Source: Chromatiaceae bacterium
GTDB taxonomy: Bacteria; Pseudomonadota; Gammaproteobacteria; Chromatiales; Chromatiaceae
NCBI GenBank assembly: GCA_003562815.1
Contig: PWTO01000182.1
Coordinates: 7,703 to 71,702, forward strand
Direction: 5' to 3'
DNA: 64,000 nucleotides
The number at the start of each line of letters is the position of its first letter. Positions within the stretch are counted from its first letter, which is position 1. Below are positions 21,107 to 43,073 of the stretch, in pieces. The position numbers and the translations under genes were made by a program. The notes under the pieces were generated by a model. That model saw only the letters and a program-made list of their open reading frames with translations. It was not told where the DNA came from and did not search any database.

Positions 21107-21964
21107 ATGATAATGATTTTCAGCAACCCGTTCTCGGAGCTGTCGGCTCTCATCTCCCCTGCCGTGATGCAGGCCTACGTCGTTCTGATGGTCCTGTTGG
21201 TCATCGGCGGCACCCTGCTCGATGTCAAGCATAAGAAGAGCGCCCAATATTTCTTCGAGAAAGGACAAGCGCTGAAGAAGCTCGCCAAGCGTGAGCCCAG
21301 CAGCGCCGAGAGAATGCGCATCGCCGCAAACACCATCACCCATGAGGTGCTCGCCTCGGGCGAGTTCGATAACCCGGATCGGCGCAAATCGCATCTGCTC
21401 ATGATGTATGGCTTCATCCTCTTCGTGGTCTCGACCGCACTCTTGATCTTCGGTCTGCCGGTCGCCGAGGGTGGGGGCTTTTCCCTCTTACCCCTGCTGT
21501 GGCACCTCGGCGCGCTGATGATCTGCGTCGGCGGCTACTGGTTCTGGCTCAAGATCCGCGTCGATGTGCGGGCCGAAGGCCACCAGTGGTATGAGGTGGA
21601 GCGCCGCGATCTGTTCATCGTTTCATTGTTGCTGATGGCCACCTCCGCGCTGGTGTGGTCATTGCTGGAGGCGATGGGCGGTGGCGTGCTCGCCGGTCTT
21701 GCCCTGTTTGTCTTCATCGTTGCGGCCACCACGCTGTTCAGCACCGTCTTCTGGTCGAAGTTCGCTCACATGTTCTACAAGCCTGCGGCGGCGTTCCAGA
21801 AAAAGATGGCCGTGGCGGATGGCTCAAGGGACAAGCTGCCCGATCTCCCCGAACTGACCGATCCTGCTGTCAGGCAGCGGTATCCGGATATCCCGGAGTA
21901 CATGGGCGACAACCCGCCCTACATGGGGCTTGGTATCAAGAGTGAGCCGCCTACCCATTACTGA
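21107..21964 (+). CDS. aprM: AprM, membrane anchor of APS reductase
   Basis: 285-aa polytopic membrane protein between sat and aprB, the same arrangement as the known sat-aprMBA cluster of Allochromatium vinosum. GGAGG RBS. Confidence 0.7.
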   Translation: MIMIFSNPFSELSALISPAVMQAYVVLMVLLVIGGTLLDVKHKKSAQYFFEKGQALKKLAKREPSSAERMRIAANTITHEVLASGEFDNPDRRKSHLLMMYGFILFVVSTALLIFGLPVAEGGGFSLLPLLWHLGALMICVGGYWFWLKIRVDVRAEGHQWYEVERRDLFIVSLLLMATSALVWSLLEAMGGGVLAGLALFVFIVAATTLFSTVFWSKFAHMFYKPAAAFQKKMAVADGSRDKLPDLPELTDPAVRQRYPDIPEYMGDNPPYMGLGIKSEPPTHY

Positions 21965-22003
21965 TCTTGATTCGATCCATCGAATCATGAGGAGGAATAG
22001 AAG

Positions 22004-22489
22004 ATGCCGACATTCGTCTATATGACCCGCTGCGATGGCTGTGGCCAATGTGTTGATATCTGTCCTTCGGACATCCTGCACATCGATCCCGTCACCCGGC
22101 GCGCCTACAACATCGAGCCCAATATGTGCTGGGAGTGCCTGCCCTGCGTCAAGGCTTGCCCGCAAAATGCCATCGACGTGCGTGGTTACGCGGACTTCGC
22201 CCCCTTGGGCCACTCGGTTCGGGTACGCCGTGACGAGGAAAAAGGCGTCATCGCCTGGCGGATCATCTTCCGCAACGGCCGCAAGGACATGGAGTTGCTG
22301 GCGCCGATCACAACCAAGCCCTGGCGGGAGCACATTCCAAAGCTCGCCGATGTGCCAGCACCCAGCCAAGAGATGCGCGATAGCCATCTGTTGTTCAACG
22401 AACCCAAGTACATTCGCATGGACGATGGCGGCTTGCACACGCTCAAGTCCAATGGGTTAAAGATGGTCGCCGGGGTGGAGAGTTACTAA
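22004..22489 (+). CDS. aprB: Adenylylsulfate (APS) reductase beta subunit
   Basis: MPTFVYMTRCDGCGQCVDICPSD... and CWECLPCVKACP ferredoxin motifs. AGGAGG RBS. Confidence 0.93.
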   Translation: MPTFVYMTRCDGCGQCVDICPSDILHIDPVTRRAYNIEPNMCWECLPCVKACPQNAIDVRGYADFAPLGHSVRVRRDEEKGVIAWRIIFRNGRKDMELLAPITTKPWREHIPKLADVPAPSQEMRDSHLLFNEPKYIRMDDGGLHTLKSNGLKMVAGVESY

Positions 22490-24351
22490 TGGCTTTCAAG
22501 ACAATCATCGAAGACGACATCGACATCCTGGTCGCCGGTGCTGGCCTAGGCGGCACGGGCGCCGCGTTCGAGGCCCGGTATTGGGGCCAGAACAAGAAGA
22601 TCGTCATCGCCGAAAAAGCGAACATCATGCGTTCCGGGGCCGTCTCGCAGGGCCTGTACGCGATCAATTGCTACATGGGAACCCGTTTCGGGGAAAACAA
22701 TCCCGAAGATCACGTCCGCTACGCACGTATCGACCTGATGGGCATGGTCCGTGAGGATCTGCTGTTCGATATGGCCCGTCATGTCGATTCGACCGTGCAT
22801 CAGTTCGAGGAATGGGGTCTGCCGCTGATGCGCGACCCGAAGACCGGCGCCTATCAGCGCGAAGGCCGCTGGCAGATCATGATTCACGGTGAGTCCTATA
22901 AGCCGATCGTCGCGGATGCGGCGAAGAAGTCGGCCGACAAGGTCTTCAACCGCATCTGTGTCACCCATCTGCTCATGGACGAAAGCAACCCGAACCGCGT
23001 TGCGGGCGCTGTCGGTTTCAATGTGCGCACCGGCAACTACCATGTCTTCAAGTCGAAGACCGTGATCTGCGGTGCGGGTGGCGCGTCTAACATCTTCAAG
23101 CCACGCTCGGTTGGCGAGGGTGCGGGCCGCGTTTGGTACGCGCCTTGGTCTTCCGGCTCCGCGTACGGTCTGATGATCGGCGCCGGCGCCAAGATGACAC
23201 AGATGGAAAACCGCATCGTGCTGGCGCGCTTCAAGGACGGTTACGGCCCCGTGGGCGCCTACTTCCTGCACCTCAAGACCTACACGCAGAACGGCTATGG
23301 TGAGGAATACGAGTCCAAGTGGTTCCCAGCGCTCGAGGAGATGGTCGGCAAGCGCTATCTTGACATCGAGGCCTCGCACCTAACCCATCGCCCGATTCCG
23401 ACCTGCCTGCGCAACCATGCGTTGATCAATGAGGTCAATGCCGGTCGCGGCCCGATCCACATGGTGACCATGGAGGCGTTCCAAGACCCGCATCTCGAAG
23501 AGATCGGCTGGCACAACTTCTTAGGGATGACCGTCGGCCAGGCCGTCCTGTGGGCGGCCACCGATGTCGATCCCAAGCATGAGAATCCGGAGCTGACGAC
23601 CTCCGAGCCCTATGTGATGGGCTCGCATGCGACCGGCTGCGGCGCCTGGTGCTCGGGTCCGGAGGATGTCTCGCCGCCCGAGTACTTCTGGGGCTACAAC
23701 CGCATGACCACGGTCGAAGGGCTGTTCGGGGCCGGCGACGCCGTCGGCGGCACACCGCACGCCTTCTCGTCTGGCTCCTTCACCGAGGGGCGTCTTGCCG
23801 CCAAGGCGGCCTGCCAGTATATCGACGACGGCAAGGCCGAAGGCATCGTCGTCTCCGACGAGCAAATCAACCGGCGCAAGGAAGAGATCTACAAGCCGAT
23901 GGAGCATTACAAGGTCTATCGCAATGAGATCACGGCCGGATCGGTCAACCCGAACTACATCAACCCACGCCAGGGTCTTGATCGTCTGCAGAAGTTGATG
24001 GACGAGTACTGTGGCGGCGTGACGGTCAGCTACATGACCAACGACAAGCTGCTGAACATCGGCTTGAAGAAGATGAAGGTCATGGAAGAGGACCTGGAGA
24101 AACTGGCCGCAGAGAATATCCACGAGCTGCTGCGGGCCTGGGAACTGAAGCACCGCCACATGACCGCCGAGGCTGTCTTTCAACACACCCTGTTCCGCGA
24201 AGAGACCCGTTGGCCGGGCTACTACTATCGCGGCGACCACATGAAGGTGGACGACGAGAACTGGCATGTGCTGACGGTGTCTCGCCGCGATCCCGAGACC
24301 GGTGAATACACCATGGAAAAGGCGCCTTGTTACCACCTGGTAGACGCGTAG
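22489..24351 (+). CDS. aprA: Adenylylsulfate (APS) reductase alpha subunit
   Basis: 620 aa, DILVAGAGLGGTGAAFEA FAD fold, fumarate-reductase-family core. ATG overlaps the aprB stop. Confidence 0.93.
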   Translation: MAFKTIIEDDIDILVAGAGLGGTGAAFEARYWGQNKKIVIAEKANIMRSGAVSQGLYAINCYMGTRFGENNPEDHVRYARIDLMGMVREDLLFDMARHVDSTVHQFEEWGLPLMRDPKTGAYQREGRWQIMIHGESYKPIVADAAKKSADKVFNRICVTHLLMDESNPNRVAGAVGFNVRTGNYHVFKSKTVICGAGGASNIFKPRSVGEGAGRVWYAPWSSGSAYGLMIGAGAKMTQMENRIVLARFKDGYGPVGAYFLHLKTYTQNGYGEEYESKWFPALEEMVGKRYLDIEASHLTHRPIPTCLRNHALINEVNAGRGPIHMVTMEAFQDPHLEEIGWHNFLGMTVGQAVLWAATDVDPKHENPELTTSEPYVMGSHATGCGAWCSGPEDVSPPEYFWGYNRMTTVEGLFGAGDAVGGTPHAFSSGSFTEGRLAAKAACQYIDDGKAEGIVVSDEQINRRKEEIYKPMEHYKVYRNEITAGSVNPNYINPRQGLDRLQKLMDEYCGGVTVSYMTNDKLLNIGLKKMKVMEEDLEKLAAENIHELLRAWELKHRHMTAEAVFQHTLFREETRWPGYYYRGDHMKVDDENWHVLTVSRRDPETGEYTMEKAPCYHLVDA

Positions 24352-26548: not shown

Positions 26549-27211
26549 TTAACGGGTGGCGGATAGGATTCCACGCCTGATCAGATCGTCGATGACCTCG
26601 CCGGCGAGTTCCTCCGGCGTCCCTTTGCCCGCATGCAGGATGAGTTCAGGCCTTTCCGGTGCCTCGTAAGGATCATCGATGCCGGTGAAATGCTTGATCT
26701 CCCCGGCGCGCGCCTTCTTGTACAGGCCCTTGGGATCACGCTGTTCGCAGATCGCGAGGGGGGTGTCGACGAAGACCTCGATGAAGTCACCCTCGCGCAT
26801 CATCGCCCGCACCCGGTCGCGATCCACGCGGTAAGGGCTGATGAAGGCGGTCAGCGCAATGGTGCCGGAGTCGCAGAACAGTTGCGCGACGGCACCGATG
26901 CGGCGAATATTTTCTTCCCGATCGATGGCCGAAAACCCGAGCCCGAAACGCTCGGCATAGGCCTCGCCATGGGTCTCCCGGAGCATGCTAGGGCCGGCGT
27001 TGAGCCCGTGTCGCACATTGTCGCCATCGAGCACCGCGCTCTTCACGCCCCGGGCCGCGAGCATATGATCGACCACATTGGCAATCGTGCTCTTGCCCGA
27101 GCCGCTGAGGCCGGTAAACCAGATCACGCAGCCACGATGGCCGTGCAAACGCTCGCGCTCCTCGCGCGAGACCCGGTGATCGTGCCAAGTGACATTCGTA
27201 TCGTTCGCCAT
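26549..27211 (-). CDS. cysC: Adenylyl-sulfate (APS) kinase
   Basis: GLSGSGKSTIAN P-loop, LDGDNVRHGLN and FISPY motifs. Confidence 0.92.
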   Translation of the reverse strand: MANDTNVTWHDHRVSREERERLHGHRGCVIWFTGLSGSGKSTIANVVDHMLAARGVKSAVLDGDNVRHGLNAGPSMLRETHGEAYAERFGLGFSAIDREENIRRIGAVAQLFCDSGTIALTAFISPYRVDRDRVRAMMREGDFIEVFVDTPLAICEQRDPKGLYKKARAGEIKHFTGIDDPYEAPERPELILHAGKGTPEELAGEVIDDLIRRGILSATR

Positions 27212-27452: not shown

Positions 27453-27677
27453 ATGTTACTGAATTGCCGCACCATGCGTTTCGCCGTCACCCTCTCGGGC
27501 CTGATGCTCGCCGCCGGCTTGCTACTCGGGACGTTCGCGAGGATCACCGGGCTTTCGGTCCCAACCAGCCAGCTCTCGCTGGTTCTGGTGCTCGGCGCCG
27601 TCTTCCTGCTCGCCGTCATCTTCCTGGTCGCCCTGATTCCAGGCGTTGTGCGGCAGATGGATGAATGTCGTCACTAA
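27453..27677 (+). CDS. Small two-TM membrane protein, hypothetical
   Basis: GGAG RBS about 7 nt upstream. Two hydrophobic helices. Preceded by an AT-rich region with the inverted repeat ATTAGA/TCTAAT (27413-27436). Confidence 0.4.
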   Translation: MLLNCRTMRFAVTLSGLMLAAGLLLGTFARITGLSVPTSQLSLVLVLGAVFLLAVIFLVALIPGVVRQMDECRH

Positions 27678-27734: not shown

Positions 27735-29543
27735 TCAACGGGTCGCAGCCGGTTTGCCGGCGAAGATTGCCATCATACTGGCGGCGATCCGATGTCCAGC
27801 GGCGACGGCGGTGATCACGTCCGGTCCTTGGACCGCGTCCCCGGCTGCCCAGAGCCAGGGCTCGGAGGTGCGCCCGTCGGCATCGATCCGGATGCGGTTG
27901 CGTTCCCACTCCAGCGCCTCGGTCAGCGGTTCGCCTAGGAAGGCGTGATCCGCAGCCTGGCCGATGGCCTCGACGATCAGGCCAGCGTCGTGGAGCTGAA
28001 TGTCGCTGTCGTCGTAGTTCGGCGCGAAACGCCCCTGCTCATCGAAGACCGAGATACAGTGGACGGTCTCTAGCCCAATGACAGCGTCGCGCTCGATCAC
28101 GCACTGACGTGGACCGCGACTGGGGATGATCACAACGCCCTCCTCGCGCGCCTCGTCGATCTCCTCGCGGTCAGCGAGCATCAGGTCTTCGGCCTCAAGG
28201 GCGACCAGGGTAACGCCAACCTTGCCATGCTGCTGGCGCTGCATGCGCGCGAGGCTGCGGGCGATGTCCATGGCAACGTTGCCACCGCCGATGACGGCCA
28301 GGGTCTCTGGAACCTCGAAGCGCTCACCGAGGGTGATACGCCGCAGCAGCTCCACGGCGGAGACGACGTCCCGATGCTCGCTGCCGGGAATGCGCGTGGA
28401 GCGGCCTTGGTGCAGACCGATGGCGAGCAGCACGCTATCGTGCTGCGCGCGTAGTTGATCGATGCTGATGTCCTCGCCGACCCGGGTGCTGCAACGGATC
28501 TCGACCCCCATCGAGCGGATGACGTCGATGTCCTCATCGAGCTTGTCGTAAGGCAGTCGGTACTCCGGGATGCCGTAGCGCATCATGCCGCCGGGAGCGG
28601 GCTGGGCCTCGAACACCGTCACGCCATGACCGGCCTTGGCCAGATCGAAGGCGGCAGTGAGCCCTGCCGGTCCAGCCCCAATGATTGCGACCTGATGCCC
28701 GCTCGGCTCGCTGACGCGCCCCTCGGCGGCGATCTGCTTGATCCGATCGTGCGGAACCTGGTCGATGATGTGGCGCTTGAGCCAGCGGATGGCGATGGGA
28801 TCGCCCTCGTGGCGCGCCGCGCAGCTGGTCTCGCAGCGATGAGTGCAGACGCGCCCGCAGACATTGGAGAAGGGGTTGGTCTGATACAGCAGCCGCACGC
28901 CCTGCTCGTAGGCGCCATCGCGAATGGTGGCGATGTACTCGGGCACTGCCATGTGCGTCGGGCAGGTGGCGACGCAGAGGCCGCAGGAGACACAGCGGTC
29001 AGCCTCGAGCTTGGCCTGCTCGAGGTCGTAGCCGGCAACGATCTCGACGAAAGAATCGGCGCGCGCCTCTGGCTCGAGTTCGCCCATGTCCACGCGCTCG
29101 TTACCGGTAAGCCGATGTCCTTCGGGACGCCGGTAGCCAAGTTCGGCGCTGTCCCAGTGCTTCAGATCGACGCCGGGGGTGAAGCGAAACACCTCCGGGT
29201 CATGGTCCACCCACTTGTACTCGTTCGACATGCTCAGCGAGCTGGTCATGCAGACATCGACACAGAGCGCGCACCAGCAGCAGCGCCCATAGTCGATGCG
29301 CGGGCGCAGACCGGAGTCGCCGGGTTTGGTCGCGATCTCGGCGACCGCAACCATATCGATCGCCGCGTTCTGACAGATCGCCTCGCAGGTGCCGCAGCCG
29401 ATGCACTTCTCGACGTCGTTTTGGTGGAAACCGCGGTAGCGCGGCGCACCCGGTCGATCGTTGAGCGGATCAGGGATGGTGACCGGGTCGCGGAAGAGGT
29501 TCTTCCAGGCACTGAAGGGAGAAAGGACGTCGCTCAAGCTCAT
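27735..29543 (-). CDS. Fusion protein: NuoI/MbxN-like 2x[4Fe-4S] ferredoxin (N-terminal) plus GltD/NfnB/SudA-like NAD(P)H-dependent FAD oxidoreductase (C-terminal)
   Basis: N-terminal CIGCGTCEAIC and CCWCALCVDVC. Then CVSCGLCVATCP and CGRVCTHRCETSC (the GltD-type Fe-S region), VAIIGAGPAGLTAAFDL (FAD site) and LAVIGGGNVAMDIARS (NAD(P)H site). Last gene of the Mrp-Mbx-like operon. Confidence 0.85.
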   Translation of the reverse strand: MSLSDVLSPFSAWKNLFRDPVTIPDPLNDRPGAPRYRGFHQNDVEKCIGCGTCEAICQNAAIDMVAVAEIATKPGDSGLRPRIDYGRCCWCALCVDVCMTSSLSMSNEYKWVDHDPEVFRFTPGVDLKHWDSAELGYRRPEGHRLTGNERVDMGELEPEARADSFVEIVAGYDLEQAKLEADRCVSCGLCVATCPTHMAVPEYIATIRDGAYEQGVRLLYQTNPFSNVCGRVCTHRCETSCAARHEGDPIAIRWLKRHIIDQVPHDRIKQIAAEGRVSEPSGHQVAIIGAGPAGLTAAFDLAKAGHGVTVFEAQPAPGGMMRYGIPEYRLPYDKLDEDIDVIRSMGVEIRCSTRVGEDISIDQLRAQHDSVLLAIGLHQGRSTRIPGSEHRDVVSAVELLRRITLGERFEVPETLAVIGGGNVAMDIARSLARMQRQQHGKVGVTLVALEAEDLMLADREEIDEAREEGVVIIPSRGPRQCVIERDAVIGLETVHCISVFDEQGRFAPNYDDSDIQLHDAGLIVEAIGQAADHAFLGEPLTEALEWERNRIRIDADGRTSEPWLWAAGDAVQGPDVITAVAAGHRIAASMMAIFAGKPAATR

Positions 29544-29601: not shown

Positions 29602-30777
29602 TCACCGTTCGATCTCGGGTGGATAGGTGTGCAAAGAGACCATCAGGGCGGCGACATCGGAGATGTTGCAATTGACGATCAGGCGTTCGAGCAAGGCCAT
29701 CGCATGCGTGTAGGACGGCCCGCGCACATTGACCCGGCGCGGGTAGCCGCTGCCATCGGTGACCAGGTAATAGCCATATTCCCCGCGTGAGCACTCGCCG
29801 CAGATGTAGGTCTCGCCGAAGGGGATCTTCCAGTGCAGGACGTTTGGCAGCGGCGCCATGACGGCCCCTGAGCGTGGCATCCGGGCCAGGATCTGGCGGA
29901 TCAGGTCCACCGACATCAGCAGGTCGCGGCGGCGCACATCGGCGCGCGTAAAGACGTCGGAGTCCTGCCCCACGACCGGCTCGAAATCGAGTTCGGGATA
30001 GACCAGATAGGGCTGATCCCTGCGCACATCCTTGGCCACACCGGCGGCACGCGCGGTGGGACCGGTGACGCCGTATTGATCGACGATCGCGGGGTCGATA
30101 TAGCCGAGCCCGACGGTGCGCTTCTTGAACACCGCGTTCTGGAACATGACATCCTTGACATCGGCGAGTGTGGATTCGATCTCCCGCAGGGTCTCCTCCA
30201 TGCGCTGGTCGAAGCCATCGGGCAGCCCGTCGCGCACCCCGCCGGGCATGATGAACATGTGGTAGATGCGCGCCCCACTCAGCTCCTCGAAGCGATCGAG
30301 CATCAAATCCCGAACATAGGTCGTCCACTGGCCGATGACGCCTTGGCCGAGCGCCCCCGCCTGGCCGCCGAGGTACATCAGATAGCTGTTGATGCGCCCC
30401 ATCTCCAGGATCAGGGTGCGTATCCAATCGGCCCGCTCCGGGACCTCGAGCCCGGCAAGCTCCTCGACTGCAGCGGCATAGCAGTACTCGTTGAAATCGG
30501 GCTCGGGAACGCAGATGCGGCAGACGATCGGGAAGCACTGGATGAAGGTGCGCCGCTCCATCAGCTTCTCGAAGCCGCGATGCAGATAGCCGACATGGGT
30601 CTTGCCCTCGACCACCTCATCGCCGCAGACGGTCAGCTCCACCGACATGTTGCCGGTGATGCCGGGATGCTGCGGCCCCTGCCAGAGCTTCAGATACTTG
30701 CCCGAGCTGAGGTCGATGTCCAGGCTGCCGTCGGGCCGGCGCGACGGGTATTGGCTGCGGTCTGCTTGATACGCCAT
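29602..30777 (-). CDS. NuoD / [NiFe]-hydrogenase large-subunit-like catalytic subunit lacking a complete NiFe site (MbxL/Ehr-like)
   Basis: HVGYLHRGFEKL signature. CRIC at the L1 position (30511-30522). The C-terminus reads HTYPPEIER where the CxxC L2 motif would be. An extra CGEC lies next to the RGE motif (29791-29802). Confidence 0.85.
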   Translation of the reverse strand: MAYQADRSQYPSRRPDGSLDIDLSSGKYLKLWQGPQHPGITGNMSVELTVCGDEVVEGKTHVGYLHRGFEKLMERRTFIQCFPIVCRICVPEPDFNEYCYAAAVEELAGLEVPERADWIRTLILEMGRINSYLMYLGGQAGALGQGVIGQWTTYVRDLMLDRFEELSGARIYHMFIMPGGVRDGLPDGFDQRMEETLREIESTLADVKDVMFQNAVFKKRTVGLGYIDPAIVDQYGVTGPTARAAGVAKDVRRDQPYLVYPELDFEPVVGQDSDVFTRADVRRRDLLMSVDLIRQILARMPRSGAVMAPLPNVLHWKIPFGETYICGECSRGEYGYYLVTDGSGYPRRVNVRGPSYTHAMALLERLIVNCNISDVAALMVSLHTYPPEIER

Positions 30778-30790
30778 CTGATACGCCCTC

Positions 30791-31336
30791 TTAGGCCCCG
30801 TCCGGGTAGAGCTGTGCTTTCATGTGCTGGGCCGGGTCCTGGCTCTCACGCCCTGGGCGCGGCGCGAAGGTCTCGTTGGAATACTTCAGGGTGTCGAAAT
30901 CGCGCCGATAGGGCGGGATCTCGCGCCAGCCTTCGAGGATGAAGTCCTCGTTGACGCCGGGGCTGTCGGGGAAGTCGATGCCGAACATCTCGCGCAGCTC
31001 GCGTTGATAGGTCGCAGCGGTCGGCCAGAGATCGTGGATGCTCTCCATCGGCGCGCCTTCGATCACCGCTTGGCGCGAGAGCATCACCCGCAGCCCGATG
31101 TCGCGGGCGCCTTGGCGGTCGTGCAAGAGATAGGTGAGCTGGAAGCGATCGTCCTCGATCCAATCGACCGCCGTCAGCAGCACCAAATGGGTGAAGCCCT
31201 CCTGGTCGCGCAAATGCAGCAAGACCGGCCGCAGTTGTTCCCTGGGCAGGGTGATAAAGGCCAGATCGGGGCGCTTCTCGCTCAGCTCGCCGAGCGGGAA
31301 TCGGCCCTTCAGTTGTTCATAGAGTTCGCGCAGCAT
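30791..31336 (-). CDS. NuoC-like subunit (MbxK-like)
   Basis: ~180 aa with LLTAVDW...ERE..DMFGI-type pattern (LLTAVDWIEDD, YQRELREMFGIDF). Start at MLRELYEQL avoids overlap with the upstream gene. Confidence 0.8.
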   Translation of the reverse strand: MLRELYEQLKGRFPLGELSEKRPDLAFITLPREQLRPVLLHLRDQEGFTHLVLLTAVDWIEDDRFQLTYLLHDRQGARDIGLRVMLSRQAVIEGAPMESIHDLWPTAATYQRELREMFGIDFPDSPGVNEDFILEGWREIPPYRRDFDTLKYSNETFAPRPGRESQDPAQHMKAQLYPDGA

Positions 31337-31344
31337 CGGTGCAG

Positions 31345-32040
31345 CTACCAGTTGTAATCGGGCATGTCCCAATCATGGATCACGCGCTTCTGGTTCGCCT
31401 TGTACCAGTCGAAGCGTTCGGCATATTGATTGGCTCCTTCACCCTTGCCGGCGCGGACGATGCGCTTGAGTTCCTCGAAGCCGGCCAGCAACGCCTCAGG
31501 CCGAGGCATGCAGCCAGTGATATAGACATCCACCGGCAGGTACTCATCAAGGCGGGTAATGGTGTTGTACGAATCGAAGTACATGCCGCCATTGATCGTG
31601 CAGGAGCCGAGTCCGACCACATATTTCGGGTTCGGCATCTGTTCGTAGGAGCGAATCACCCGCTTCAGGGTCTTCACCGACAGATAGCCTGAGATCACGA
31701 ACAGGTTCGATTGCCTCGGGGTTGGCCGCCATTGAATGCCATAACGGTACGCGTCGAAGCGCGGCGTCATCAGCGGCCGCATCTCGATCGCCCCGCAGCC
31801 GGTGCCGAAGCCTAAAATCCAGAGCGATTCGGCCCGCGCCCAGTTGAACAGCCCCTCGATGATCTTGCTGTAAGCCGCAGGCATCACCGTCGGGGGCGCC
31901 TCGCAGTAATAGTCGCGCAGCGGCTCGACCTCGAACTCGACGCCGTCCGGTCCCTTGACCAAGCGGCGCCTCAGCTCTTCTTTCACCGGCGCGTGCTCGA
32001 TCAGGTCGTCGTCTAGGAGGTCTTCGTTTGTCTGCGTCAT
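31345..32040 (-). CDS. NuoB-like [4Fe-4S] subunit (MbxJ-like) with an acidic N-terminal extension
   Basis: GTGCGAIEM, GLGSCTINGG and TGCMPRPE motifs, with Cys82-Cys147-Cys177 spacing of 65/30 as in NuoB. The first Cys of the tandem CC is Gly here. Confidence 0.85.
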   Translation of the reverse strand: MTQTNEDLLDDDLIEHAPVKEELRRRLVKGPDGVEFEVEPLRDYYCEAPPTVMPAAYSKIIEGLFNWARAESLWILGFGTGCGAIEMRPLMTPRFDAYRYGIQWRPTPRQSNLFVISGYLSVKTLKRVIRSYEQMPNPKYVVGLGSCTINGGMYFDSYNTITRLDEYLPVDVYITGCMPRPEALLAGFEELKRIVRAGKGEGANQYAERFDWYKANQKRVIHDWDMPDYNW

Positions 32041-32053
32041 CTGCAGTTGCTCC

Positions 32054-32959
32054 TTAAGCGATCATGATGGCGATCACGCCCAGCGGTACGGCCCAGATCA
32101 AGAACCAGCGAATCGACTGCTCGACCCGGAAGCGCGGGAAGACGACACCCACGATGACCGAGACCAGATAGATCAGAAACACCTTGAGAAAGAACGCCGG
32201 CCAGCTCGCCGCACCGCCAAAGAACAGATTCATGTAGATCACAATCTTGGCAATCGGGAAGATCGCACGATTGGTCTGCATCAGGGCGAGGTAGGACGAG
32301 TGGTACTCGGTCGGCGGTCCGATCGGGATCTCCTGCGGCGCCAGGACGACATCGAACGGCGGGCGCATCATCGTGCCGAGGAACGAGAGCATCGCTGCGG
32401 CGACCGCGATCGGGTTCGTAAACAGGGTCCACTGCAGGATGCCGCCCTGCTGCGCGGCGACGATCTCGGTCACCGAGAGGGTCTGATACTGCACCGCGAC
32501 CGCGTAGACGGCCAACGCGAACGGCAGCTCGGCGGCGGTCACCTGCGACAGCCCGCGGGTGACGCCGATCGCCGAATACGGATGGCCGCTTTCGCCGGCG
32601 CCCAGCGCCATGCCCAGGGAGCCGAAAAAGACGAAGTAGAGCGCCAGGATGAGGTCACCGGCGAAGGACATGTTCGAGAACATCTCGGTGCCGTAGAGGG
32701 TCGGCACGAACATCAGCAGACCGACGCCGCCAGTGAGCCGAAACACCGGGCCCATATAGAACATCACGCCATGGGTGATGGAGCTGCGCAGGCCGTAGTT
32801 CTTGATCAGGTCGAGGTAATTCTGCCAGACCGGGATGCCGTGCCGGCGTCCGACTCGGGCCGCGATCTTGGCCATCACCGCCGTCAGCAGGAAGCCATAG
32901 TTGGCGACGATGAACAAGGTCAGCAGCGCATAGGGGATCTTGATCCATTCGAACGACAT
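32054..32959 (-). CDS. NuoH-like membrane subunit (MbxM-like)
   Basis: 301 aa, polytopic, with a NuoH/HyfC-like pattern. Positioned between the antiporter modules and the NuoB-like gene. Confidence 0.75.
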   Translation of the reverse strand: MSFEWIKIPYALLTLFIVANYGFLLTAVMAKIAARVGRRHGIPVWQNYLDLIKNYGLRSSITHGVMFYMGPVFRLTGGVGLLMFVPTLYGTEMFSNMSFAGDLILALYFVFFGSLGMALGAGESGHPYSAIGVTRGLSQVTAAELPFALAVYAVAVQYQTLSVTEIVAAQQGGILQWTLFTNPIAVAAAMLSFLGTMMRPPFDVVLAPQEIPIGPPTEYHSSYLALMQTNRAIFPIAKIVIYMNLFFGGAASWPAFFLKVFLIYLVSVIVGVVFPRFRVEQSIRWFLIWAVPLGVIAIMIA

Positions 32960-32961
32960 GG

Positions 32962-35900
32962 TTAGAGCCCTGTCCGCAGGAGGTAGACGACCACGACGAA
33001 CGCCAGCAACTGGATCGCGTACGTTTGTCCGTTACCGGTGTAGAGCCGGCGCAGCAGGTCGGCACTGGCGTGCAAGAGATCGACGATAGCGGCCCAGAAG
33101 CGTTCGACCAGCGGCTCGGTGAGGAAACCAAGCGCCTTGCGGTAGGGCGCGAAGAAGTTCCAGGCGAAATGCGTGGTCTCCGGTCGGAAGGGCCGCTCGC
33201 CGGCAAAGACGATATTGAACTGCTTGACCTTTTGCGCCTTGCGGTTGACGAAGACCAGCCAGGCGAACAGGCTCGCGAAGATCACGCCGACCACGATCAT
33301 GATCGAGATCGGGCTCCAGTAGCCGAAGGCGCTGGTGATGGTGAGGCCCTCCCAGCCCAGGGCGCCCTCGGGATGGAACTGACTGATGTAGGCATCGACC
33401 CGCCGCAACGCGAGCCCAGGAACCAGTGCGAACGCCATCAGACAGGCGACGAAGATCATCTGCGGCAGCACCAGCCAGAACGGTGCCTCCTTGATACGCC
33501 GGTGCTCGTCCTTGAGCTGGCCTAGGAAGATGGTATGGATCAGGCGGAACAGATACAGGAACGCAATCGGCCCCGAGATGAAGATCAGAATCATCGGCAG
33601 CCGGGAGTCGGTCGTCAGGATGGCGTTGTAGAAGATCCAACGCCCACCGAAGCCCGACAAGGGCGGCACGCCGGACATGGCGATGATGCCGATCAGCACC
33701 GCGATGAACGACAGCGGCATCAGGGTGATCAATCCCCCCATCCGATACATGTCACGGGTGCCAGTGCGTTTGGCGACACCGCCGACCGAGAGGAACAGCA
33801 TCGATTTATAGATGTAGTGGTTGATCACGAACATCAGCGCCATGAGCCAACCGAGATGGTTCATCATCGCCAGGCCGAACAACGCATAGCCCATCTGGCC
33901 GATCGACGAATAGGCCAGCAGGCGCTTGGCATCCTCCTGGAACGCGGCCATCAGGTTGCCGATCAGCGCCGAGAGCGCACCGATCCAGAGCAGGATGTGG
34001 GTCAGCTCGACCCCATAGAGCTGCTGGCTGCCCATGGCCATGAACAGGACGAAGAGCCCAAACAGGCCGGCCTTGAGCAGGATGCCCGAGACCATCGGCG
34101 AGACATCGGTCTCGGCCTCGGCGTGAGCGCCCGGCAGCCAGATGTGCAGGCCGACGGCTGCGGTCTTGGTCATGAAGCCGATGGCCAAGAGCAGGAAGAC
34201 CCAGGGTGCCAAGGGGGCGGCGACCTGCTTCAGGCCCGCGAGCGTAAACAGCGGATCACCGTCCGCCGCCAGCGCGAATCCGGCCAGGATCAGGAAGGCG
34301 CCGGCGAGGGAAAACACCATGTACGAGAGCGCATGCGGCTCGGAGCGCTGGCCGCGCAAGATCAGGAAATAAGAGCCGATGGTGAGCGATTCCCAGGCGG
34401 CGAAGAAGCCGAAGGCGTCTTCGGCCACGATCAGCATCGCCAGACCGGCGTACATCAGCATCGCCGAGGGGTAGAAGCCGATGCGCCGCCCCTGGGTCTG
34501 ATAGCTCGCGAGCAGGATCAAGGCGCCACCGATCAGCATCACCGCAGCAAAGATCAACTGCAGCGGATCGTAACTGGGTAGGCTCAGCACGAACCAGGCG
34601 ACCAGCCCGGCGATGGCGAGGCTGTTCTTGATCTGGACCGACAGCGGTTCGAGCACCAGGAAGCCGAACGCGAACAGCAGCGGTACGGCCAGCAGTAGAT
34701 TGCCATTGAGCGAGAGGGCGCCCCAGATCAAGCCCAGGCCCCAGCCAGCAGCCACTGCGGTCAGGATCACCGCGCGCTTGAACGACGACACCGCAACAGG
34801 CTCCGGTGCGCGCTCGCGTTTGAGTGCGCGCCCAAACCATCGGAACAGATAGCCGGCCTCCAGCAAGGCACCGAACAGGATCAATCCGATCAGGGCGATA
34901 CGTCCCTCGCCGGCCAGCGCGATGACCAGCTCCCACTTCGCGTAGAAGCCTGGGAACGGCGGCAGACCGACCAGCAGGGCGATGAAGCTGGCGAAGGCGA
35001 AGATCAGGATCGGATGGCCCTGCAGGGCGCTCCAAGCCGTCAGCGTGCGCCCCTCAATCAGGCCAGACAGCCAATAGAGGCCGGCCTTGGCCACGGCGTG
35101 GGCTAGCAGGATACCGCCGGCAATGAACAGGTAGCGATCACCGAGCAGGTCGCGCTGGCCGATCACCGCCAAGATCAGGCCGATCTGGGCCACCGAGGAG
35201 TAGCCCAACAGGCGCCGGTCATTGCGTTGGGCCAAGGCAAACAGATTGGCACCGACGAAGCCAACGATGCCGATACCGGTGGCCAGCGGAAGCCAGGTCG
35301 AGCCGCCGATCAGCAGCAGCTTATCGGCGGCAAAGAGCGCGGCTGACCCCGAGGCCGCCGAGAGCATCGCCGAGAACGCCGGGTGTGCCGACTCGTAGAC
35401 ATCCAGCGCCCAGCCATTGGCCGGGAACGGCTTCAGGTCCAGAACAATGGCGATGAACATCAGGAAGAAGGCCAACCCGCCGCCCTTGAGCACCAGCGAT
35501 GACACCTCGGCCATGCCGTCGATGTTGAGCGTGCCGGTGGCATGGTAGGCGAAAATAATGCCCACCAGCAGCAGGATCGTGATGACCTGGGAGGCGACCA
35601 GGTACTTGAATCCGGCGGCCAAGGCGCGCTTGTCGCGCGAGAGCAGCACCAGCCCGCCGGTGGCGATGGCGACCAATTCGAAGAAGACGAACAGGTTGAA
35701 CAGATCGCGGGTCAGGACGATGCCGCAGGCCGCCATCGTGAAGATCAGCAGCACGGCCAGCGCACGCCGACCTTGATTGAACATGGTGTCGCGCAGGTAG
35801 ACCGCCGAGAGCAGGCCGGTCAGGTTGATCGATAGGGTCAGGACCGCCTCGGCCAGGCCCATACGCAGGTTGATCGCATACGGCGGCAGGGTTCCGGCGG

Positions 35901-36087
35901 TCGTGATGTCCACCGCGCTGCCGTCCCCGGAGGCCAGCACCCAGACCCAGCCGGCGGAAATCAGGCTCATGCAGGCGAGCGCCGCGAGGCTGACGCCGTA
36001 GGCGCCGGCGCGCCACTCATCGCGCAGCAATCCGAGCAGGAACGCGGCCCCGAGGCCGACCGCAAGGATATAAAGAGCGCTTACCAT
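32962..36087 (-). CDS. Fused tandem antiporter-like subunits (two MrpD/NuoN-type modules in one 1041-aa polypeptide; MbxH+H'-like)
   Basis: Two separate copies of the family signature: GYSSVAQIGLILAVIG in the first half, and WESLTIGSYFLIL plus AYSSIGQMGYALFGLA in the second. Confidence 0.8.
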   Translation of the reverse strand: MVSALYILAVGLGAAFLLGLLRDEWRAGAYGVSLAALACMSLISAGWVWVLASGDGSAVDITTAGTLPPYAINLRMGLAEAVLTLSINLTGLLSAVYLRDTMFNQGRRALAVLLIFTMAACGIVLTRDLFNLFVFFELVAIATGGLVLLSRDKRALAAGFKYLVASQVITILLLVGIIFAYHATGTLNIDGMAEVSSLVLKGGGLAFFLMFIAIVLDLKPFPANGWALDVYESAHPAFSAMLSAASGSAALFAADKLLLIGGSTWLPLATGIGIVGFVGANLFALAQRNDRRLLGYSSVAQIGLILAVIGQRDLLGDRYLFIAGGILLAHAVAKAGLYWLSGLIEGRTLTAWSALQGHPILIFAFASFIALLVGLPPFPGFYAKWELVIALAGEGRIALIGLILFGALLEAGYLFRWFGRALKRERAPEPVAVSSFKRAVILTAVAAGWGLGLIWGALSLNGNLLLAVPLLFAFGFLVLEPLSVQIKNSLAIAGLVAWFVLSLPSYDPLQLIFAAVMLIGGALILLASYQTQGRRIGFYPSAMLMYAGLAMLIVAEDAFGFFAAWESLTIGSYFLILRGQRSEPHALSYMVFSLAGAFLILAGFALAADGDPLFTLAGLKQVAAPLAPWVFLLLAIGFMTKTAAVGLHIWLPGAHAEAETDVSPMVSGILLKAGLFGLFVLFMAMGSQQLYGVELTHILLWIGALSALIGNLMAAFQEDAKRLLAYSSIGQMGYALFGLAMMNHLGWLMALMFVINHYIYKSMLFLSVGGVAKRTGTRDMYRMGGLITLMPLSFIAVLIGIIAMSGVPPLSGFGGRWIFYNAILTTDSRLPMILIFISGPIAFLYLFRLIHTIFLGQLKDEHRRIKEAPFWLVLPQMIFVACLMAFALVPGLALRRVDAYISQFHPEGALGWEGLTITSAFGYWSPISIMIVVGVIFASLFAWLVFVNRKAQKVKQFNIVFAGERPFRPETTHFAWNFFAPYRKALGFLTEPLVERFWAAIVDLLHASADLLRRLYTGNGQTYAIQLLAFVVVVYLLRTGL

Positions 36088-36437
36088 TTCAGATCCTTGA
36101 ACGCGGAGATATCGAGGGTGCGTTTGGTCTCGTAGAGCTTGTACACATAAGCGAGCATCAGGGCTGTGACGCCGACGCCGATCACGATCGCCGTGAGCAC
36201 CAGGGCTTGAGGCACCGGATCGATAATGCGCGCGACGGCCTCGGCGACCGGCACCGCCTCATCGAGAATCGGCGCCGTGCGCCCGTGCATGTAGCCCACG
36301 GCGACCATGACCAGGTTGACCCCGGTGTTGGCCACGGTGAAGGCGACGATCATGCGCAGGATGTTGCGATTGGTCAGCGCTCCGAAGAGCCCGATCAGAA
36401 TCAAGACAAAGCCAGTGGTCATGGCGATATAGGCCAT
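36081..36437 (-). CDS. MrpC/MnhC (NuoK-like) subunit
   Basis: 118 aa, three TM helices. Overlaps both neighbouring genes. Confidence 0.75.
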   Translation of the reverse strand: MAYIAMTTGFVLILIGLFGALTNRNILRMIVAFTVANTGVNLVMVAVGYMHGRTAPILDEAVPVAEAVARIIDPVPQALVLTAIVIGVGVTALMLAYVYKLYETKRTLDISAFKDLKW

Positions 36438-37150
36438 CAGAGATCCTCCGTCTCGGACAGATTCGCCAGCATCGAGGAGAACTCCGCGCCGACCTTGAGG
36501 CCGATGAAGGAGTAGACGATCGGGATCGCCCCCGCCGAAAAGAGTGCGCCCAGGCTGCCGATGGGTAGGATGCGGTTGTCGAGGAACCCGCCTGCGAAGA
36601 AGATGCCGAGCACGCCGATACCGACGAAGACCAGACCGGCGGTGGACTCGATGGTGGCGATCAGACCGTGACTGATGCGCCGTAGCGGATCGGTCAGGAG
36701 CAGCAGGAGAATCGCCGAGGCGAGGATGGCCCCGCCTTGGAATCCACCCCCCGGGGTCAGATGCCCATTCACAAAGACATACACGCCGAGCAACAGAATC
36801 AGCGGAACCAACAACTGGGTGCCGGTGGTGAGCAGCTCGCCCGCCGGTGGCAGCTCGCGCCCCGACCCCTCGCCCTCGCGATGGCCGTGCGACAGCACCA
36901 GGCCGACGATGGCGGCGGTGAGGAACAGCACCGTGACTTCGCCGAGCGTATCGAGACCCCGAAAGGTGACGATGATGGCCGTGACGATGTTGGCCGCACC
37001 GATGTCCTGGGCGGTGTGCTCGGCGTAGTAGCGAGCGCTGAGATTGAGCGCGTCATTGGGGGTGTAGCCGCCCACAAGCCCTGCGAAGATGGCGCCGAGC
37101 CCGAGCAGCAGCAGGATGACGAACAGGCGCCTAATCACGTTCGCCTCCAC
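36437..37150 (-). CDS. MrpB/MnhB-like subunit
   Basis: GAANIVTAIIVTFRGLDTLGEV motif typical of the MnhB domain. GTG start. Confidence 0.75.
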   Translation of the reverse strand: MEANVIRRLFVILLLLGLGAIFAGLVGGYTPNDALNLSARYYAEHTAQDIGAANIVTAIIVTFRGLDTLGEVTVLFLTAAIVGLVLSHGHREGEGSGRELPPAGELLTTGTQLLVPLILLLGVYVFVNGHLTPGGGFQGGAILASAILLLLLTDPLRRISHGLIATIESTAGLVFVGIGVLGIFFAGGFLDNRILPIGSLGALFSAGAIPIVYSFIGLKVGAEFSSMLANLSETEDL

Positions 37151-37388
37151 GCACCCGTCCGAGGACGAAGAAAAATAGGAAGGTGGTCAGGCCACTGCCA
37201 ATCGCGGCCTCGGTCATGGCCACATCCGGGGCGGCCAGCAGTAGATACTGAACCGAGGCCAAGAGGCTCACCAGCCCGGCGGCGAGGATAGCGATGGCCA
37301 GGCTTTGGCGCCCGCGCGTGGCCAGGATCGCCGCCGCCACCATGGTGACGCTCAGCAGCAGGCTCATCTCGATCAGCAATGCGCTCAT
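37131..37388 (-). CDS. DUF4040-type small membrane subunit (MrpA C-terminal / MbxD-like)
   Basis: 85 aa, three TM helices, APDVAMTEAAIGSGL motif. Positioned between the MrpG and MrpB homologues. Confidence 0.65.
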   Translation of the reverse strand: MSALLIEMSLLLSVTMVAAAILATRGRQSLAIAILAAGLVSLLASVQYLLLAAPDVAMTEAAIGSGLTTFLFFFVLGRVRGGERD

Positions 37389-37723
37389 GGCTGCTCTCCT
37401 TGGTCTTCTGCGAGCCGGTCGATCACGGTCTGCGGGGCTTGTTTGACGCCGACTCGATGCGCCGCGCGAGCCAGCACCTGCGACGACAGCGGGTTGGTGA
37501 AGAGCAGAAAGACGCCAATCAACAGCAGGGTCAGCCCCCAGTCCGGGCGCAGGCAGGCAACCCCGGCCAGGGTCAGCAGGGGGCCCAAGGTCGTGGACTT
37601 GGTGCCGGCCTGAATACGATTGTAGGCATCGGGCATACGCACCAAGCCAATCCCGCCGGACAGAAGGAAGGCGGTCCCACCGACGAGCAGGATGGCTCCG
37701 AGCAGATCGAGAACCGAGGCCAT
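37385..37723 (-). CDS. MrpG/MnhG subunit
   Basis: GGIGLVRMPDAYNRIQAGTK motif characteristic of MnhG. Confidence 0.8.
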   Translation of the reverse strand: MASVLDLLGAILLVGGTAFLLSGGIGLVRMPDAYNRIQAGTKSTTLGPLLTLAGVACLRPDWGLTLLLIGVFLLFTNPLSSQVLARAAHRVGVKQAPQTVIDRLAEDQGEQP

Positions 37724-37983
37724 CAGAATCCCCTTTCGATGTAGCGGGCGACGACGATCACGCCGAGGAAGGAGAGCAAGGCGTAGACCAGGGCGACGTC
37801 TAGGTAGATGCCGCGTCCCTCGGCCAGCGCCGCCAGCGCAATCCCGGTAATGCTGACGATGGTGAGGCTGTCAAACGCAATGATGCGATCGACCGCCGTT
37901 GGACCCGCGATAAAGCGCCAGAGCGCGAGCAGGAAGGCGATTCCCGCGATGGTCGCAGCCAGATAGATGAGGAACTCAACCAT
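37723..37983 (-). CDS. MrpF/MnhF subunit
   Basis: 86 aa from MVEFLIYL, with the GPTAVDRIIAFDSL motif. Confidence 0.75.
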   Translation of the reverse strand: MVEFLIYLAATIAGIAFLLALWRFIAGPTAVDRIIAFDSLTIVSITGIALAALAEGRGIYLDVALVYALLSFLGVIVVARYIERGF

Positions 37984-38494
37984 AGATGACCTCGAGATAG
38001 CGCTCGAAACCGGCGACGATCTCGGCGGTGGCCCCCTCGACATCGGTGGACTCAACACTCACCCAGTGCACGTACAGCCACTCGCCCTCCATCTCGACGG
38101 TGAGGGTGCCGGGCGTCAGGGAGATCGAGTTGGCGAGCATCAGTCGCCCCATGCGGCTTTTCAGCGTGGTGCGCACCTTCACGATACCAGGCTTGATCGG
38201 TAACGATGGGGACAAAACGATGGTGGCCAGCCTGAGGTTAGACTTCACCAGCTCCTTGAAGAACAGGCCGTAGTAGCGCAGTCCCGCGACGAACGCCTTA
38301 GGTGTGGCGCGAAATTCGGTGAAGAACGAGAGGCCACTCGGGAACAACAGCGCGATGGCCAGAGACGCCATGGCCCCGACGATGAGAACATCGACCGTCA
38401 CCCGGCCCATCAGCATGAGCCAGAACAACAAAAGGGTCGCGAACATCACCGCGACGCGTCGGATTCGCGGTATGGTTTCGCCTTTCGCTACCAT
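37976..38494 (-). CDS. MrpE/MnhE subunit (first gene of the Mrp-Mbx-like operon)
   Basis: SISLTPGTLTV motif of MnhE. GAGGGGG RBS 5 nt upstream of the ATG at 38494. Confidence 0.75.
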   Translation of the reverse strand: MVAKGETIPRIRRVAVMFATLLLFWLMLMGRVTVDVLIVGAMASLAIALLFPSGLSFFTEFRATPKAFVAGLRYYGLFFKELVKSNLRLATIVLSPSLPIKPGIVKVRTTLKSRMGRLMLANSISLTPGTLTVEMEGEWLYVHWVSVESTDVEGATAEIVAGFERYLEVIYG

Positions 38495-38627
38495 CGTGCC
38501 CCCTCTTGGGAAAACGCCAGAGGTGGAGTCAGCGCATCTCGTGCGTCGCGTCACGCCACCAACAACACTGCGCATTTTGCGTCCTGCGCTCGCTGAGCGC
38601 GATGCGATGCGTCAAGAGGTGGGTTGA

Positions 38628-39149
38628 TCAGACGCCGCCGCTGTGCACCGTCTCGTAGTAGAGCTTCTCCAAGGCTTCCTTATGCTTGGCCTCTTCGTTG
38701 GCGAGGTACTCGAAAAGTTCTTTGAAGGGCCCCGCTGGCGCGCTGTCAGCGAGCGAGCGGTAGTGCGTCATCGCGAGATGCTCGCGGCTCATGGCGTACT
38801 GCAGCACCGCTTGATCATCCGGATGCTCGCCGAGGTCGGGCGTCATCACCGCCTCGGCGAACTTGCCGTCTGTGACCGGGCGTTCCACTTCGGCCTTGAT
38901 CTGATCCTCGATGTCGTCGCGCGCCGCCAGTGCCGTGAACAGTTCGTAGTGGCCCTGCTCCTCGTTCGCCAATTCCTCGGCGAGCCAGCGGAAGTTCTTG
39001 CTAACTTTCGGGATCAGATCGGTGTAGAAGTTGCGCGCACTTTCCTCGAAAGACGTCGCGACGCTGAGCACAGCGTCTAGCGTCGTCATGGAACGGATGC
39101 GCTCGTAGCTGGACTGTTGACCCTCAAGTGGGTCGGGCGTTGCTTTCAT
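38628..39149 (-). CDS. Ferritin-like di-iron protein (rubrerythrin-family four-helix bundle)
   Basis: Two E-x-x-H motifs (NEEQGHYELF and NEEAKHKEAL) in repeated helical halves. Start uncertain (39149 or 39089). Confidence 0.65.
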   Translation of the reverse strand: MKATPDPLEGQQSSYERIRSMTTLDAVLSVATSFEESARNFYTDLIPKVSKNFRWLAEELANEEQGHYELFTALAARDDIEDQIKAEVERPVTDGKFAEAVMTPDLGEHPDDQAVLQYAMSREHLAMTHYRSLADSAPAGPFKELFEYLANEEAKHKEALEKLYYETVHSGGV

Positions 39150-39313
39150 GGAATTTGCTCATTGTGGGGAGTGGAAATTGAACGTCCACGCTCGGACGCC
39201 CAGGTCTAGCGTCAAGTTCCCCGGTCAGTCCATCATCGCGTTCAAGCATCCGATTGAGGAGTGAGGGAATGGCGCAGAACAGGGCTCGAACGAGCGACTG
39301 GACGACCGGCTTC

Positions 39314-43072: not shown

Positions 43073-43073
43073 C

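Follow-up and report, generated by a model that had tools for sequence, protein, structure and literature searches.

A Chromatiaceae Mrp-Mbx operon ending in a NuoI-like::GltD-like fusion gene: sequence signatures of a sulfane reductase-type complex with a different input module

A 64,000-nt stretch of contig PWTO01000182.1 from a Chromatiaceae bacterium (assembly GCA_003562815.1; positions 7,703 to 71,702 of the forward strand), hereafter the window, contains a 12-gene Mrp-Mbx operon on its minus strand. The terminal gene (27735..29543, -) encodes a 602-aa protein in which an MbsN/NuoI-like ferredoxin domain is fused to a GltD/NfnB-like NAD(P)H flavoprotein. Judged by the signatures of its subunits, the operon product is a complex of the membrane-bound sulfane reductase (MBS)/Mbx type with a different input module. 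The fusion architecture itself is not new; it is known, widespread and functionally uncharacterised, and the window provides a Chromatiaceae member. The initial annotation of the gene had regarded it as an unusual way of building a minimal complex-I-like enzyme. We found that "unusual" does not apply, as the architecture has a curated NCBIfam model, occurs in many phyla and was described in 2015 (PMC4758237), and that "complex-I-like" does not apply either, for the reasons given below. Our additions are modest, namely an MBS-type reading of the active site, a division into A and B subtypes, and a pair of co-varying cysteines. The value of the system is that of a well-defined biochemical target, not of the discovery of an architecture.

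The open reading frame (ORF) of the fusion begins with ATG and, in the ORF listing, runs for 602 codons with zero internal stops. Its N-terminal 2x[4Fe-4S] domain (residues ~5-125; 29169..29531, -) has MbsN of the Pyrococcus furiosus MBS as its nearest solved structure (6u8y_N, E 8.5e-22), not the NuoI of complex I, and was also matched over residues 7-122 by the NCBIfam NuoI models (E 3e-26 to 2e-23), all below their cut-offs (TIGR01971: 82 vs. 113 bits). The motifs CIGCGTCEAIC (residues 47-57) and CCWCALCVDVC (residues 88-98) both follow the pattern CxxCxxCxxxC and supply the cluster ligands of this domain (Cys 47, 50, 53, 57, 88, 91, 94, and 98). A weakly conserved linker of ~22 residues (~126-147; 29103..29168, -), marked by variable and gapped alignment columns, leads to the NfnB/GltD/SudA-type module (residues ~148-597; 27753..29102, -), whose nearest solved structures are of the NfnB/NfnA type (4ylf_B, E 5.6e-68). 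The cluster cysteines of this module (Cys 184, 187, 190, 194, 229, 233, 237, and 241) lie in the Fe-S motifs CVSCGLCVATCP (residues 184-195) and CGRVCTHRCETSC (residues 229-241), and are followed by the flavin adenine dinucleotide (FAD) site GAGPAGLTAA (residues 289-298) and the NAD(P)H site GGGNVAMD (residues 419-426), which have the forms GxGxxG and GxGxxA. Pfam placed a Fer4 dicluster at residues 43-101, Fer4_20 (PF14691) at 162-263 (E 6e-27) and Pyr_redox_2 (PF07992) at 284-578 (E 4e-27), the last two above their cut-offs. An AlphaFold2 model, built on a 16-sequence alignment, had a mean predicted local distance difference test (pLDDT) score of 80.9, with values >90 in the GltD module, ~76-80 in the NuoI-like core and <50 in residues 1-37 and in the linker region (106-146). 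It superposed on P. furiosus NfnI-L (5jca_L) with a template modelling (TM) score of 0.88 and E 3e-44 (Foldseek). The Pfam, NCBIfam and PDB matches thus agree with the initial annotation, which had described a NuoI/MbxN-like dicluster domain joined to a full GltD/NfnB/SudA flavoprotein and had quoted motifs that are all present; only the start assigned to the flavoprotein (~170) needs correction, since the 4ylf_B alignment begins at ~148.

A fused reading frame could in principle arise as an artefact, if a frameshift in sequencing or the loss of a stop codon had merged neighbouring mbxN and gltD-like genes. We found no support for this, the sole weak spot being the 22-residue linker of low conservation, and consider its probability negligible. 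The identical 602-aa protein was found in a public NCBI assembly, and its 90% cluster held proteins of Halochromatium, Lamprobacter modestohalophilus and Chromatiaceae metagenome-assembled genomes (MAGs), annotated throughout as "FAD-dependent oxidoreductase". A word-indexed search returned at least 120 homologue clusters at 66-93% identity, from sources that include Thiohalocapsa, Rhodoferax, Gallionella, Sideroxyarcus, Magnetovirga, Ca. Thiodiazotropha and Azonexus; the best 120 were nearly all full-length at ~600 aa. When residues 1-184 were used as the query against 50%-identity representatives, ~15 more full-length clusters were recovered, down to 38% identity. A 16-member alignment with identity down to 35% showed no variation at any of the 16 Fe-S cysteines or in the FAD and NAD(P)H motifs; these cysteines would be enough for four clusters. 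A curated full-length hidden Markov model also covers the fusion: NCBIfam NF010590 (PRK13984, "putative oxidoreductase") matched the window protein end to end with 866 bits (E 1e-260), pairing residues 4-590 with positions 9-602 of the 611 in the profile. Because this score is below the curated cut-off of 946 bits, the window protein is a homologue outside the equivalog boundary. The Thermosipho melanesiensis homologue (P0131, 48% identical) scored 1195 bits, above the cut-off, and the architecture has therefore already been modelled from Thermotogae.

Loci were surveyed by scanning a single genome of each GTDB species for sequence patterns, and taxon counts are lower bounds. The scan yielded at least 22 loci with a full-length fusion, which do not include the nearest relatives, and at least 58 GltD-only loci. 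Fusion loci occurred in Bacteroidales, Fermentibacteraceae, Gammaproteobacteria, Spirochaetes, Cloacimonadota, Izemoplasmatales/Tenericutes, Delongbacteria, Verrucomicrobiota, Planctomycetota, Aminicenantes and Brevinematales, and full-length copies span about a dozen bacterial phyla. The ORF is uninterrupted in the window and continuous in these at least 22 further genomes, and the frameshift artefact was ruled out by this cross-phylum conservation.

The fusion gene is gene 12 of the operon, in the order mnhE, mnhF, mnhG, mbhD, mnhB/mbhE, nuoK/mnhC, a 1041-aa double antiporter-like gene, nuoH, nuoB, nuoC, nuoD and the fusion. Magnetovirga frankeli and a Gallionella MAG share this order, with a rubrerythrin gene after the fusion gene. 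Synteny was assessed by tblastn of the window operon proteins against the surveyed loci, with four earlier-retrieved loci added to those of the scan. Genes for nuoD-nuoC-nuoB-nuoH lay directly upstream in all of the fusion loci with upstream DNA (24/24), and antiporter and Mrp genes were also present wherever that DNA extended far enough, whereas nuoD/C/B/H, antiporter and Mrp genes were detected by tblastn at none of the 58 GltD-only loci. Co-occurrence of the fusion with Mrp-Mbx genes, which the initial annotation had raised as a point to check, is therefore consistent across the survey. No NuoE/F/G genes were found in the operon by ORF and Pfam analysis, and no gene for a GltB, NfnA or SudB partner was found in the operon or in the syntenic loci. 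Since the fusion sits in an Mrp-Mbx operon, it would, as had been proposed, wire NAD(P)H directly into the Fe-S chain of the complex.

The type of complex was read from comparisons with solved structures and from active-site residues. All five subunits that were compared with the PDB (NuoD-, NuoB-, NuoI-, NuoH- and antiporter-like) were nearest to MBS (6U8Y). The NuoD/MbsL-like subunit (391 aa; 29602..30777, -) matched MbsL (6u8y_L, E 3e-94) better than Nqo4 (5e-62) or MbhL of the membrane-bound hydrogenase (MBH; 1.5e-42), and the NuoB/MbsJ-like subunit, which would hold the proximal [4Fe-4S] cluster (31345..32040, -), aligned without gaps with MbsJ (6u8y_J, E 3e-63) and less well with NdhK (2e-38). 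The MBS structure is without Nqo4 His38 and Tyr87 and MbhL Glu21, and retains two vestigial NiFe cysteines; its proximal cluster has three Cys ligands and a loop three residues shorter than that of MBH, and MbsJ Cys25 and MbsL Cys85 and Cys385 are dispensable (PMC7684303). In the NuoD-like subunit of the window, Thr41 is found where Nqo4 has His38 and Val90 where it has Tyr87, Cys89 corresponds to MbsL Cys85, Tyr385 stands at the position of MbsL Cys385, and the motif 'RICVPEPD' is kept. The NuoB-like subunit, with the motif FGTGCGAIEM, keeps MbsJ Cys28, Cys93 and Cys123 as predicted proximal-cluster cysteines (82, 147, and 177), and has Gly79 for Cys25, with no gap; at this N2-equivalent cluster the tandem Cys-Cys of complex I is absent, 'GTGCG' standing in place of 'CC'. 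A motif survey of 26 loci separated type A loci, the window included, with [FY]GTGCG, from type B loci, which resemble P. furiosus in having YCTGCG and ACPPE[VI]DR. None of the 26 loci showed the tandem Cys or the Tyr87 that characterise complex I. A group 4 [NiFe] hydrogenase (MBH/Ech/Hyc) was considered and rejected: the NiFe ligand set (L1 RxCGxC, L2 DPCxxC) is absent, Cys occupies one of the four ligand positions of the NuoD-like subunit, its C-terminus reads 'HTYPPEIER', and the Pfam NiFeSe_Hases match falls below the cut-off.

The NuoB-like protein also possesses a ~55-aa N-terminal extension that has no counterpart in MbsJ and holds Cys46 in "DYYCEAPP". An extension Cys, usually in a [YF]C motif, was found in nine of the 11 type A loci with a readable N-terminus and was absent from type B. 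The type A loci that have it are all without an equivalent of MbsJ Cys25, so that, in these sequences, loss of the Cys25 equivalent co-varies with gain of the upstream Cys.

A second division concerns the NAD(P)H site of the fusion protein. The window protein has 'VALE450' after beta-2, preceded by a 6-residue insertion, where NfnB and GltD have 'YRR', whose Arg pair binds the 2'-phosphate of NADPH. In this region (residues 427-460; ~28164-28265 of the window, -), both an 'LE' type, with an LQ(K/R)QxYGK insertion, and a classical 'YRR..MPA' type occur in the fusion family, and this division is independent of the A/B active-site subtypes (loci L001-L026). 'LE'-type sites are common among GltD-like proteins that lack characterisation. 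A Glu at the position after beta-2 usually favours NADH, and some NADPH-dependent relatives of GltD also bear it. The sequences suggest that the 'LE' and 'YRR' types are NADH- and NADPH-preferring variants. For the window protein, we left the preference undecided because the Arg pair of 'YRR' is replaced by 'ALE' together with the 6-residue insertion.

Taken together with what is known of MBS, these features led us to propose that the complex is a reversible, ion-translocating NAD(P)H:sulfane-sulfur oxidoreductase in which the fusion protein is the electron-input (or output) subunit, a proposal whose chances we put at about even. A hydride from NAD(P)H would be passed to FAD, and single electrons would then move through the two GltD-type and the two NuoI-type clusters to the proximal [4Fe-4S] of the NuoB-like subunit. 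A sulfane S-S bond, of polysulfide or stored zero-valent sulfur (S0), would be reduced in the chamber formed by the NuoD-, NuoB- and NuoH-like subunits, and the loops of this chamber would couple the reaction to H+ pumping by the MbsH-H' fusion and to Na+/H+ exchange by the Mrp module. Running forward, the complex could support a dark, anoxic S0 respiration that regenerates NAD+ in a sulfur-storing phototroph; running backward, driven by the ion gradient, it could reduce NAD(P)+ with sulfide. The potentials of NAD(P)H and polysulfide are about -320 mV and -260 mV, a span of ~50-60 mV, or ~10-12 kJ per 2e-. MBH conserves energy from 12 kJ/mol per 2e- (PMC8165549). The NAD(P)H-polysulfide span is thus small and similar to that of MBH, and the reaction would therefore lie near equilibrium and be reversible.

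Expression data from related systems are consistent with a role in sulfur metabolism. The mbx operon of Thermotoga maritima, an MBS homologue, is induced by S0 (PMC9431562), as is the MBS cluster of the deep-branching bacterium 3DAC (PMC10356935), which we compared as an MBS cluster, leaving aside the fusion state of its MbsN. In Endoriftia, a sulfur-oxidising symbiont, an Mrp-Mbx complex of "unknown function/direction" is co-expressed with genes of the reductive tricarboxylic acid cycle and hydrogenase genes (PMC11636981).

Several points weigh against this proposal. We infer the sulfane-sulfur acceptor of the fusion-type complex from homology alone, and many of the hosts are not evident sulfur reducers (Gallionella, Rhodoferax, Azonexus). 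For a complex that has two pump modules, NAD(P)H offers little driving force. Cys46 of the NuoB-like subunit may act as a catalytic thiol or as a fourth ligand of the cluster, and in the latter case it would remove the open-Fe catalytic site. In the AlphaFold2 model, the relative placement of the two modules and the inter-cluster distances are unreadable at the pLDDT of <50 found in the linker.

A wider version of the proposal would have the enzyme link the NAD(P)H pool directly to stored or zero-valent sulfur. Chromatium turns stored S0 into sulfide in dark anoxia, and we know of no established enzyme for this step. The forward reaction would be the missing dark S0 respiration of purple sulfur bacteria and symbionts, the backward reaction a quinone-free route from sulfide to NAD(P)H, and the extra Cys and the diiron protein described below adaptations of the MBS active site to that role and to oxygen exposure. 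We advance this version only tentatively and regard it as doubtful; if it were true, the reduction of NAD(P)+ by sulfide without a quinone pool would give autotrophs a new kind of reverse electron flow.

In the window, a gene for a rubrerythrin/erythrin-like diiron protein (173 aa; 38628..39149, -; E...ExxH twice; Pfam Rubrerythrin E 8e-13) lies upstream of mnhE, and in eight proteobacterial loci (L001-L004, L009-L011, and L014) such a gene is directly downstream of the fusion gene. The protein aligned without gaps over 157 residues with the C-terminal extension (residues 599-755) of a 764-aa fusion protein, P0130 (E 4e-8), a Rosetta-stone triple fusion that argues for physical association; the rubrerythrin-like protein is probably attached to the complex, and it may guard oxygen-sensitive clusters. 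In the loci of Bacteroidales, Cloacimonadota, Spirochaetes and Izemoplasmatales it was not detected in the vicinity of the fusion and is for that reason an accessory. NCBIfam also has a separate family of GltD-ferritin fusions (PRK12775).

Other functions were weighed against the sulfane-sulfur proposal. In a minimal complex I, the GltD module would replace NuoEFG in an NAD(P)H:quinone oxidoreductase. Thermotogae and Izemoplasmatales/Tenericutes generally lack respiratory quinones, and the fusion family is present in both groups, although the proteobacterial hosts do contain quinones. Homology to complex I runs through the NuoB/C/D/H/I/K and antiporter-like subunits, the NuoD-like subunit exceeds the cut-off of NF004739 (388 vs. 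360 bits), and the chamber of MBS is as wide and hydrophobic as that of complex I (PMC7684303). Nevertheless, the analogy is unsupported because the quinone-associated His and Tyr (here Thr and Val) and the tandem Cys-Cys are absent, and every subunit compared is far nearer to MBS than to any complex I; we therefore judge a quinone-reducing enzyme unlikely.

According to the older model of Mbx, which resembles that of Rnf, ferredoxin would be the donor, the GltD module would reduce NAD(P)+, and ions would be moved by that span. This was proposed for mbx-like operons by Degli Esposti in 2015 (PMC4758237) and has been applied to Mesotoga, and NfnB-type modules do normally connect NADPH with ferredoxin-level clusters. 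The Mbx of P. furiosus, however, was later shown to be the sulfane reductase MBS and no ferredoxin:NADP+ oxidoreductase (PMC7684303). A path confined to the distal end would bypass the NuoB/NuoD/NuoH coupling chamber and leave its conserved MBS-type residues without a role, and the fused module likely covers the face on which ferredoxin docks to MbsN, so that we give this model a low probability. Much the same low probability attaches to an NAD(P)H-driven reductase for another acceptor, such as peroxide or O2 via the rubrerythrin-like protein, thiosulfate or another sulfur compound. Close linkage of the rubrerythrin-like gene in proteobacteria, the C-terminal domain of P0130, the existence of PRK12775 and the microaerophiles among many hosts are in its favour, but a protein missing from the Bacteroidales, Cloacimonadota, Spirochaetes and Izemoplasmatales loci is not a universal acceptor, and soluble peroxidase chemistry needs no 12-subunit ion-translocating membrane arm.

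Compared with the P. furiosus MBS, the window operon shares the order mrpE-F-G, mbhD, mbhE, nuoK, two antiporter-like units and nuoH-B-C-D-I, the 'RICVPEPD' motif, the short NuoB-like loop with three putative cluster cysteines, and the lack of both the quinone His/Tyr and a NiFe site. The P. furiosus complex has a free, 208-aa, ferredoxin-accepting MbsN, whereas the MbsN-like domain of the window forms one polypeptide with a 450-aa NAD(P)H flavoprotein, and the donor would be ~160 mV less reducing. MbsH and MbsH', two proteins in P. furiosus, make up a single 1041-aa protein here, Gly and Tyr stand in for MbsJ Cys25 and MbsL Cys385, and the Cys-bearing NuoB-like extension and the rubrerythrin-like gene at the operon are features of the window operon and not of the P. 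furiosus complex. The organisms differ as well, P. furiosus being a hyperthermophilic S0 reducer and the window host a mesophilic, phototrophic sulfur oxidiser. The window also contains a dissimilatory adenosine 5'-phosphosulfate (APS) reductase cluster that marks the host as a sulfur oxidiser; it consists of aprM (QmoC-like membrane anchor), aprB and aprA (21107-24351, +), 3.4 kb downstream of the operon. The score of AprA on TIGR02061 was 1109 bits, and that of AprB on TIGR02060 was 198 bits. The gene cysC, for an APS kinase, is located at 26549-27211 (-).

The end-to-end NuoI::GltD fusion and the 'LE'-type NAD(P)H site are shared with the Mbx of Thermotogae (NF010590), from which the window protein differs in belonging to a proteobacterial lineage with a rubrerythrin partner and in scoring below the equivalog cut-off. 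The authors of the T. maritima study assumed a ferredoxin donor and did not discuss the flavoprotein fusion (PMC9431562); work on Mesotoga likewise described a ferredoxin-dependent complex and left the flavoprotein undiscussed. With complex I, the operon product shares an L-shaped superfamily, a homologous Q-module (NuoB, C, D, I), a NuoH anchor, antiporter-like pumps and a pyridine-nucleotide dehydrogenase that supplies a [4Fe-4S] chain. The input of complex I is, however, flavin mononucleotide with NuoF/E/G, whereas here it is an unrelated FAD/GltD fold covalently joined to NuoI, and the membrane arm has the Mrp/MBS arrangement with MnhE/F/G/B. The flavoprotein module is 32-34% identical to its NfnB/SudA/GltD relatives and shares with these and with the N-terminal module of dihydropyrimidine dehydrogenase two [4Fe-4S] clusters in a Fer4_20 domain, together with an FAD site and a Rossmann domain for NAD(P)H; unlike NfnB, SudA and GltD, its clusters would pass electrons to a fused NuoI-like domain and not to a partner subunit. 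The architecture was described by Degli Esposti, who noted that the operon "often terminates with rubrerythrin" and assigned NAD(P)+ reduction to the subunit (PMC4758237). The window operon fits that description exactly, except that the NuoI domain is kept and fused, not replaced. Our PDB comparison and literature search revealed neither a solved structure nor any enzymology for a complex of the fusion type.

Public annotation names the fusion "FAD-dependent oxidoreductase" and its neighbours subunits of "NADH-quinone oxidoreductase". As a result, when the metabolism of sulfur and iron oxidisers, of symbionts and of many anaerobes is reconstructed, the operon is taken for part of complex I or passed over. 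Candidatus Kentron, which lives in Kentrophoros ciliates as a sulfur-oxidising symbiont, is represented in the 90% cluster of the MbsL-like subunit, and the members of this cluster are all annotated as 'NADH-quinone oxidoreductase subunit D', a label that is probably a systematic mis-annotation across the cluster. The fusion represents a third, independent feed for the Q-module of complex-I-type enzymes, besides NuoEFG and the free ferredoxin/F420 modules, and illustrates modularity at the input end of the superfamily. Should the chemistry indeed be of the MBS type, an energy-coupled reduction of sulfur or oxidation of sulfide, linked to NAD(P)H, would occur in dozens of mesophilic lineages that are currently credited only with molybdoenzyme-type (Psr/Sre) or Sqr/Dsr systems.

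The remaining genes of the operon, all on the minus strand, were assigned as follows. Upstream of the nuoD-like gene lie those for a NuoC/MbsK-like subunit with an uncertain start codon (30791..31372; Pfam Complex1_30kDa E 2e-24) and, beyond the nuoB-like gene, a NuoH/MbsM-like membrane anchor (32054..32959; Pfam NADHdh E 2e-43; 6u8y_M E 1.3e-39). The next gene (32962..36087) encodes the 1041-aa MbsH::MbsH' fusion of antiporter-like subunits, of which the N-terminal half matched 6u8y_H and residues 456-1033 matched 6u8y_X (E 1e-55). This antiporter fusion also occurs in Magnetovirga, Gallionella, Bacteroidales, Cloacimonadota and Delongbacteria loci and is 1044-1045 aa long in L001 and L003, while L012, L020, L021, L023 and L026 gave a match only to its C-terminal half. 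Further upstream are the genes for NuoK/MnhC (MbsG-like; 36081..36437; Pfam Oxidored_q2 E 8e-23), MnhB/MbhE (MbsE-like; 36437..37150; Pfam MnhB and MbhE), MbhD (MbsD-like; 37131..37388; Pfam MbhD E 8e-16) and MnhG (MbsC-like; 37385..37723; Pfam PhaG_MnhG_YufB E 2e-23). In MnhF (MbsB-like; 37723..38058), Pfam MrpF_PhaF covered residues 57-108; homologues are 86-90 aa long, and the real start is probably downstream of the listed GTG. MnhE (MbsA-like; 37976..38575; Pfam MNHE E 3e-37) is the first Mrp gene of the operon. Promoter and terminator scans gave background levels only and base composition was uniform, with neither recent transfer nor operon boundaries evident from them beyond gene spacing.

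Two further observations were made next to the operon. A 74-codon ORF (27453-27677, +), convergent with the fusion gene, lies in the 520-bp gap before cysC; its product, judged by eye from the complementary strand, seems strongly hydrophobic. Divergent from the operon are two ORFs of 1272 and 1220 aa (39254-46703, +), which by eye are candidates for recC and recB.

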